In this document: in pieces, positions 19,559 through 19,650 of the stretch
Layout of the letters: every line of letters starts with the position of its first letter
How positions within the stretch are numbered: the stretch's first letter is position 1
Source of the DNA: a virus
Virus record (IMG/VR): IMGVR_UViG_3300036791_000379
Span: 5,021-69,020 of that record
Strand: one strand, 5' to 3'
Length of the DNA: 64,000 bases
Made by a program: the position numbers and the translations under genes
Notes under the pieces: generated by a model
What the model was told of the DNA's origin: nothing
The model's input: only the letters and a program-made list of their open reading frames with translations
Database searches by the model: none

Positions 19559-19598
19559 CTCCCAGACTAGTGCGCTAACCGGGCTGCGCCACGCTCCG
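19559..19598 (-). other. 5' half of tRNA-Pro(GGG) (40 nt), att core, not a complete tRNA
   Basis: minus strand CGGAGCG TG GCGC AGCCCGGTTA GCGC A CTAGT CTGGGAG, then diverges exactly after the anticodon loop. Confidence 0.85.
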
Positions 19599-19621
19599 AC
19601 AAGGCTAAGTGCCTTTGATCT

Positions 19622-19650
19622 CGTTAGTTTTTTTGCTCCGGCGCGTCAAG
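19622..19650 (-). promoter_or_regulatory. promoter upstream of the tRNA half
   Basis: CTTGAC-N17-CTAACG about 23 nt upstream of the tRNA 5' end. Confidence 0.6.

Follow-up and report, generated by a model that had tools for sequence, protein, structure and literature searches.

At tRNA genes, recombination in the 5′-distal mode is described as much rarer than in the 3′ mode, with the work of Zhao and Williams (2002), on a Mesorhizobium loti element, given as the bacterial reference (PMC6563490). The locus described here belongs to a 96,181-bp IMG/VR virus record (62% G+C), of which we analysed bases 5021–69020 (64 kb, hereafter the window). It resembles the M. loti element, as described, in restoring the 5′ part of the gene, displacing the host 5′ fragment and having a rhizobial, alphaproteobacterial host. 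It differs in that its carrier is a complete 96-kb tailed-phage genome in the attP state. The preliminary description of this DNA had called 5′ replacement rare, which is correct; the layout had, however, already been published. The mirror-image layout is real here, and it is rare rather than new, with no new mechanism class. Our joint explanation, to which we assign a probability of roughly 0.85, is that the carrier is a temperate 96-kb myovirus-like phage of Bradyrhizobium-like hosts, with its attP at 19475–19741 and a tRNA-Pro half from which the host gene is rebuilt.

Islander admits islands with a 5′ tDNA fragment upstream of an intact tDNA (Hudson, Lau & Williams 2015, PMC4383910). Three chromosomal relatives of our locus (G232, G046 and G001, described below) fit that configuration, in which the fragment is upstream of the intact gene and oriented like it and the island encodes an integrase. 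Islander holds integrated islands, whereas the window has a free attP with arm sites and a promoter piece. An anticodon-loop sublocation class of tRNA-targeting integrases was reportedly defined by Williams in 2002. As in that class, the crossover at our locus would fall in the 7-nt loop, with the symmetric anticodon stem flanking it in attB; unlike that class, the window attP has the 5′ stem strand only, and identity runs toward the 5′ end of the gene. In tRNA-dependent lysogeny, the host tRNA gene is disrupted and the phage carries a complete replacement tRNA gene (Guerrero-Bustamante & Hatfull 2024, PMC10865867). Here too integration would disrupt a host tRNA gene for which the phage compensates, but a complete tRNA gene is absent from the window phage, and it is the host's own gene that would be rebuilt.

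Among cultured phages, Rhizobium phage RHph_I3_18 (MN988542.1, a circular genome record) has an integrase of the same family (30% identity), followed, as in the window, by a 5′ half of tRNA-Pro(GGG) that reaches no further than the loop; arm-like repeats stand to either side. Upstream of the half are CTTGCG-N17-ATAATG and a 21-nt leader; the half is unannotated in the record. RHph_I3_18 differs from the window in host genus and tRNA sequence, and its identity between attP and host includes 18 nt of the leader. Sinorhizobium phage phiLM21 (KJ743987) and the IMG/VR loci L182, L185 and L197 also have integrases of this family (30% identity), with Pro GGG as target and the same loop boundary. Unlike the window, they hold the 3′ part of the gene, beginning with the loop and running through to CCA; this is the usual polarity and needs no promoter.

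A phage attachment site beside a tyrosine integrase gene

The region 19475–19741 of the window is an attP. A tyrosine integrase gene on the plus strand (18197–19528, 443 aa; PF00589, E 6.9e-12) has its 3′ end toward the tRNA fragment. Its catalytic set is complete (R243, H348, R352, H374 and Y383, matching the R...HxxR...H...Y pattern), and it is 34–39% identical to the integrases of elements located at the same tRNA. Its stop codon is separated from the anticodon loop by a 30-nt non-tRNA spacer (19529–19558) that is unlike the host 3′ half. Direct copies of TCGGGCACAC with a 12-nt period stand on the plus strand on both sides, two within the 3′ coding end of the integrase gene (19475–19496) and three on the far side (19708–19741). 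This decamer has six exact copies in the 64-kb window, five of which flank the tRNA fragment, and by sequence the arrays have the pattern of arm-type integrase sites around a core, so placed as to make them the putative arms. Within the far side lies a tandem of CAACGAAAAG and CAACGAAAAC (19669–19688, plus strand; GTTTTCGTTG CTTTTCGTTG on the minus strand), and a (G/C)TTTTCG motif like it is found in the same place in the virus G005 and in G232-type elements. Beyond the arm, the first gene of a divergent plus-strand operon occupies 19772–20308, according to a gene map built from codon-position GC.

Phage genes flank the site. To its left are genes for a ParB-like protein, a methyltransferase and a RecT-like annealing protein, and to its right those for baseplate, tail fibre and tape measure proteins. 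Two further genes gave PHROG matches: an ORF left of the integrase (15365–16261) matches PHROG 4285, annotated 'transposase' (E 1.6e-49), and a 445-aa protein at 38846–40183 matches PHROG 850, annotated 'RNA-binding protein' (E 9e-48).

The same layout was found in a second virus, G005 (IMGVR_UViG_3300047672_000038), whose integrase is 39% identical to that of the window in the alignment. G005 has an arm repeat of its own, AGTCCGGACCGT, on both sides of its site in a matching arm layout, and it shares homologous genes with the window on both sides. The stretch itself is listed for two sequencing runs, both of soil DNA, and for no RNA run, and a megablast of 18000–21000 against cultured phages gave no match.

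As the preliminary description had proposed, we read the site as attP, since the integrase stop is 30 nt away, arm repeats stand on both sides, phage genes flank it and read depth in the source soil run is equal across it (13 on one side, 14 on the other). In a rival reading, the site would be a junction inside an integrated prophage array or a tandem one, or else a chimera made during assembly by a join across the repeated tRNA half. A junction within a tandem array would be indistinguishable from an attP, and Logan contigs of the source run, in which host attB-type loose ends are present, do end within the tRNA half, where depth jumps to 255–576 because host tRNA genes pile onto it. We nevertheless consider this reading very improbable given the equal depth and the shared arm repeat, an upstream region that is phage-type and not host-type, and phage genes on both sides with a single set of tail and baseplate genes seen in the window; the layout also appears independently in G005 and in the circular RHph_I3_18 genome. 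Neither attL nor attR of the window phage was found among the Logan contigs of the source run.

The exact 5′ half of a host tRNA-Pro(GGG) gene

The core of the attP is a 40-nt tRNA-Pro(GGG) 5′ half, read on the minus strand from 19598 to 19559 (tRNA positions 1–38). Its letters are CGGAGCG TG GCGC AGCCCGGTTA GCGC A CTAGT CTGGGAG; they run from the 5′ strand of the acceptor stem through the D arm and the anticodon-stem 5′ strand to the GGG-bearing anticodon loop. All 40 positions are identical to the first 40 nt of the host gene that ARAGORN calls tRNA-Pro(ggg). A perfect half stopping at the end of the anticodon loop had been noted from the letters alone, and comparison with bacterial tRNA-Pro(GGG) genes bears this out: the 40-mer has exact matches in at least 120 species-representative genomes, and Bradyrhizobium and uncultured Alphaproteobacteria make up almost all of the matches listed. 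With up to 3 mismatches allowed, it occurs in 376 of 401 genomes of the Bradyrhizobium-type host genus. The fragment had also been expected to identify the host lineage. It does so to the extent of pointing to a Bradyrhizobium-like host, with a resolution at the level of genus or family and no finer.

Past the loop, the window continues with non-tRNA letters beginning GACGG (GACGGCGGGCAAG) where hosts have ACTAG (ACTAGGGGTCGGAGG...). Upstream of the 40-mer, the two have just the T at –1 in common, so that the block of identity is 40–41 bp long, with the final loop base as its limit. ARAGORN found no complete tRNA, whether in the window or across the full 96-kb record, and the attP has no 3′ tRNA portion. 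An Rfam cmscan of 19400–19800 returned chance matches alone (E > 1) and no partial tRNA match; as the Rfam tRNA model is silent on half a gene, the half-gene call comes from the exact identity to host genes. In some genomes of the host genus (G134, G040, G188, G305, G377 and others), the loop reads CTGGGGG and not CTGGGAG, which is the form found in Rhizobium and Sinorhizobium targets.

We ruled out tRNA-dependent lysogeny for the window phage, as the 96-kb record has no tRNA gene and the attR junctions described below are intact host-type tRNAs.

Position of the crossover

The anticodon loop CTGGGAG (19559–19565, minus strand) is the putative 7-nt crossover, or overlap, region, as judged from comparison across the family. 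Since the host and phage 5′ halves are identical, the exchange point has no sequence marker of its own, and the crossover could instead lie elsewhere in the 41-bp block, for example near the palindromic ACTAGT or in the D arm (GCGC...GCGC). On the 3′ side of the loop, the attP base pairs are no mirror image of the anticodon stem, which implies asymmetric core-binding sites and could be taken to favour such a position. What speaks for the loop is the behaviour of independent elements. In the window, G005, G232 and RHph_I3_18, the loop is where identity stops, and identity runs past it by 3 nt in G001 and 8 nt in G046, while in carriers of the 3′ part (L160, L165, L176, L182 and phiLM21) it begins at the same loop. 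The loop is the sole segment common to all of them and is thus the likely overlap region, in line with the crossover first proposed from the window's sequence; we regard an exchange elsewhere in the block as unlikely.

Integrated relatives at the same tRNA gene

If the preliminary description's model is right, a lysogen should have at attL the host promoter, the host 5′ half and the antisense integrase, and at attR the phage promoter, the phage 5′ half and the host 3′ half, forming an intact tRNA. When the window was joined in silico to an empty Bradyrhizobium site, the resulting attR held an intact tRNA and the attL did not. The predicted structure was found in three chromosomes, G232, G046 and G001, each with a host-type promoter and 5′ half, then element DNA, then an element-type promoter before an intact tRNA.

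The largest of the three, in the 7.15-Mb chromosome of G232, is a 16.5-kb element (L139 1282–17822, corresponding to G232:C1:4205281–4221821). In order, it presents the host-type promoter and 5′ half, non-tRNA DNA, a 377-aa integrase 34% identical to that of the window, the element-type upstream region and the intact tRNA. Its genes include the integrase, portal, prohead protease, major capsid, an AAA_25 protein and an ABC substrate-binding gene, with no tail gene among the ten ORFs scanned. It may be a satellite-like element that forms capsids, or else a prophage in decay. G046 has the same structure around a 3.5-kb remnant without integrase. Its displaced host copy at attL (L140, about 4150–4223) has a short leader duplication (GAAGCTAAGGGAAC / GAAGCCAAGGGAAC) and, at position 9 of the tRNA, a C in place of G, both signs of decay of a dead fragment. 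In G001, the remnant is 2.8 kb long, and its integrase (35% identical to the window's, E 1e-42) is missing its N-terminus and, it seems, the first catalytic arginine as well.

We also searched metagenome contigs for the predicted attR, that is, the phage leader and 5′ half followed by the host ACTAGGGGTC. This yielded the 2.9-kb contig Ga0075424_100110230 (L209), in which tRNA-Pro(GGG) is intact. Its upstream 186 nt match the window, read from 19743 to 19559, at 81% identity and include the arm repeats and the CTTGAC promoter-like motif, and downstream lie a host-type 3′ half and a terminator, without integrase; the attL partner is absent from the contig. By its sequence, L209 has exactly the predicted structure and would be the attR of a close relative of the window phage.

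Lysogens with related integrases thus lie at the same tRNA and in the polarity expected from the model, and the integrases mapped in them are 34–35% identical to the window's. A search of the 401 host-genus genomes with the window integrase at E ≤ 1e-60 had no match, and no lysogen of the window phage itself was found.

Several genomes with a second copy were examined and set aside. G361 was rejected as a lysogen, since it has the complete tRNA-Pro(GGG) gene twice in tandem, along with about 95 nt of native upstream sequence that includes the host promoter; the two copies (L141 4257 and 7742, G361:C36) are 3.5 kb apart. G027, G080, G170 and G246, with two copies of the 40-mer each, were rejected because both copies are intact and lie on different contigs.

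The promoter-like motif and leader

Upstream of the tRNA half on the minus strand, the promoter-like motif CTTGAC-N17-CTAACG is present as first described (19622–19650, with CTTGAC at 19650–19645 and CTAACG at 19627–19622). CTTGAC-N18-TAA has this single occurrence in the 64 kb, both strands counted, against 0.06 expected. The native host tRNA-Pro promoter is CTTGCG-N17-CTAA(T/G)G, 9–10 nt before the tRNA, at 107 of 120 loci among the matches listed; the window motif has the same form and stands 23 nt before the tRNA. Among 11 attP or attR sequences of the window's type (layout i below: the window, L209, G005, G232, G046, G001, L079, L105, L110, RHph_I3_18 and L166), CTTG.. -N17/18-.TA... is kept with a leader of 19–23 nt, while the surroundings have diverged. 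From these comparisons, the motif is likely to be the promoter of the rebuilt tRNA.

The leader in the window is 23 nt long (19599–19621, minus strand) and can form a small hairpin, AAGGC-ACUUA-GCCUU (–6.1 kcal/mol), which is weak (z about –1.9 to –2.1). Its final 13 nt are identical in L209, and the leader of G005 is similar. No co-directional gene lies within about 3 kb upstream of the tRNA half, and the nearest upstream genes point away, making read-through transcription of the rebuilt tRNA unlikely.

The palindrome ATACGAC-N5-GTCGTAT has 13 sites in the window between 17968 and 36702 (for example 24576–24594 and 29076–29094), against 0.1 expected, and one copy (17968–17986) precedes the start of the integrase gene by about 210 nt. 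The palindrome has the look of an operator for a repressor regulon that spans the phage. None of the 13 copies overlaps CTTGAC-N17-CTAACG, and a tRNA promoter free of the operator would fit expression in a repressed prophage.

The tRNA half could instead serve the integrase for recognition or homology only, with a motif that is no working promoter and a rebuilt tRNA that is silent or poorly expressed, the host using tRNA-Pro(UGG). tRNA-Pro(GGG) is dispensable in Salmonella, and the GGG isoacceptor is non-essential in enterics; selection for restoring tRNA-Pro(GGG) may therefore be weaker than assumed. An E. coli-consensus promoter scan made no call at the motif, whose –10 is weak by that consensus; such a scan is uninformative for alphaproteobacterial promoters. 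Several features are harder to reconcile with a silent tRNA. All 40 nt of the 5′ half are identical, far beyond what a core site needs, and the half is exact in elements whose integrases are 34–39% identical. The spacing of –35 and –10 and the distance to the tRNA are likewise kept in diverged elements, in the form of the host tRNA promoter, and in 6 of the 401 host-genus genomes the sole tRNA-Pro(GGG) gene is preceded by the G232-type, element-type upstream region. We judge the silent-tRNA reading improbable and retain the motif as the likely promoter.

Polarity of the restored half across the integrase family

Relatives of the integrase are encoded at 57 IMG/VR loci, of which 19 have a flank long enough to read and 38 are unclassified. 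Three layouts were seen. In layout i, the 5′ half lies on the strand opposite the integrase with the loop proximal (targets Pro GGG and Pro UGG); in layout ii, the 3′ part lies on the integrase strand, again with the loop proximal (Gly CCC, Arg UCU, Pro GGG and Pro UGG); and in layout iii, the 3′ part lies on the opposite strand with the loop distal (Pro GGG). Members of the same integrase family, at the same loop, thus restore either half of the tRNA. Layout i requires four or more changes on a quickly built maximum-likelihood tree, even with the count limited to well-supported branches; the tree is unrooted, 38 of its rows are unclassified and the window branch is long, making these flips a lead and not a count. 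L192 and L205 (layout i) adjoin L177, L186 and L204 (layout ii) on the tree, all at Pro UGG.

None of the 19 readable loci has a complete tRNA, the ambiguous L195 aside. There, ARAGORN calls an 82-nt tRNA-Pro(TGG) at 4050–4131, leaving a gap of about 18 nt to the end of the integrase match; on visual inspection, the sequence is tRNA-like in its 5′ half and anticodon arm alone.

The leaders offer a hint as to the origin of the promoter piece. In Rhizobium, the phage copy of RHph_I3_18 and a provirus copy beside the integrase of L159, which we read as that host's attL, have 18 nt of leader in common, and in some host lineages the native leader, 20 nt long, is similar to the G232-type one. These likenesses of sequence suggest that the promoter piece may once have been captured from a host tRNA gene. 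As for the six genomes with the G232-type upstream region, one of them, G019, has no displaced half, family integrase or host-type promoter within 18 kb, and this upstream region could be the fossil of a promoter replacement or a native variant.

A broader account would join these points. The restored half would have flipped several times among alphaproteobacterial integrases for Pro(GGG), Pro(UGG), Gly(CCC) and Arg(UCU) loops, the promoter and leader of the 5′-restorers may be host-captured, and decay of an element would leave the sole tRNA-Pro(GGG) permanently under element signals. We put this forward tentatively, at somewhat below even odds.

Many IMG/VR proviruses of the family (L151–L158, L161, L163, L167 and others) have records that stop 45–105 nt past the integrase stop. 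The tRNA fragment and att junction are cut off in consequence, and boundary calls seem to miss this type of att site.

Discussion

The locus suggests a simple route of integration. The tyrosine integrase would bind the arm repeats on both sides and recombine attP with the host tRNA-Pro(GGG) gene, most likely exchanging strands within the 7-nt anticodon loop, although we infer the cleavage positions from the family comparison. As the phage keeps the part of the gene 5′ of the loop, the host promoter and host 5′ half would be left dead beside the integrase at attL. At the other prophage end, the phage promoter, leader and 5′ half would join the host 3′ half into a complete tRNA gene, forming attR. 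The whole prophage would then separate the rebuilt gene from the host promoter, with transcription expected from the phage's CTTGAC-N17-CTAACG instead and RNase P presumably trimming the leader from the transcript.

The window provides a complete example of the rare mirror-image form of tRNA-gene integration, with a free attP, its arm sites, a promoter piece, an identified host group and matching lysogen structures in relatives. Annotation pipelines that expect a 3′ tRNA fragment beside the integrase will misplace the ends of such prophages. Rhizobium phage RHph_I3_18 offers a culture-accessible system with the same layout. For the host, the layout puts a tRNA gene under phage transcription signals, and it points the host tRNA promoter at the antisense strand of the integrase gene. 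If the tentative account of repeated flips, promoter capture and element decay is true, phages would time and again supply host tRNA genes with replacement promoters.
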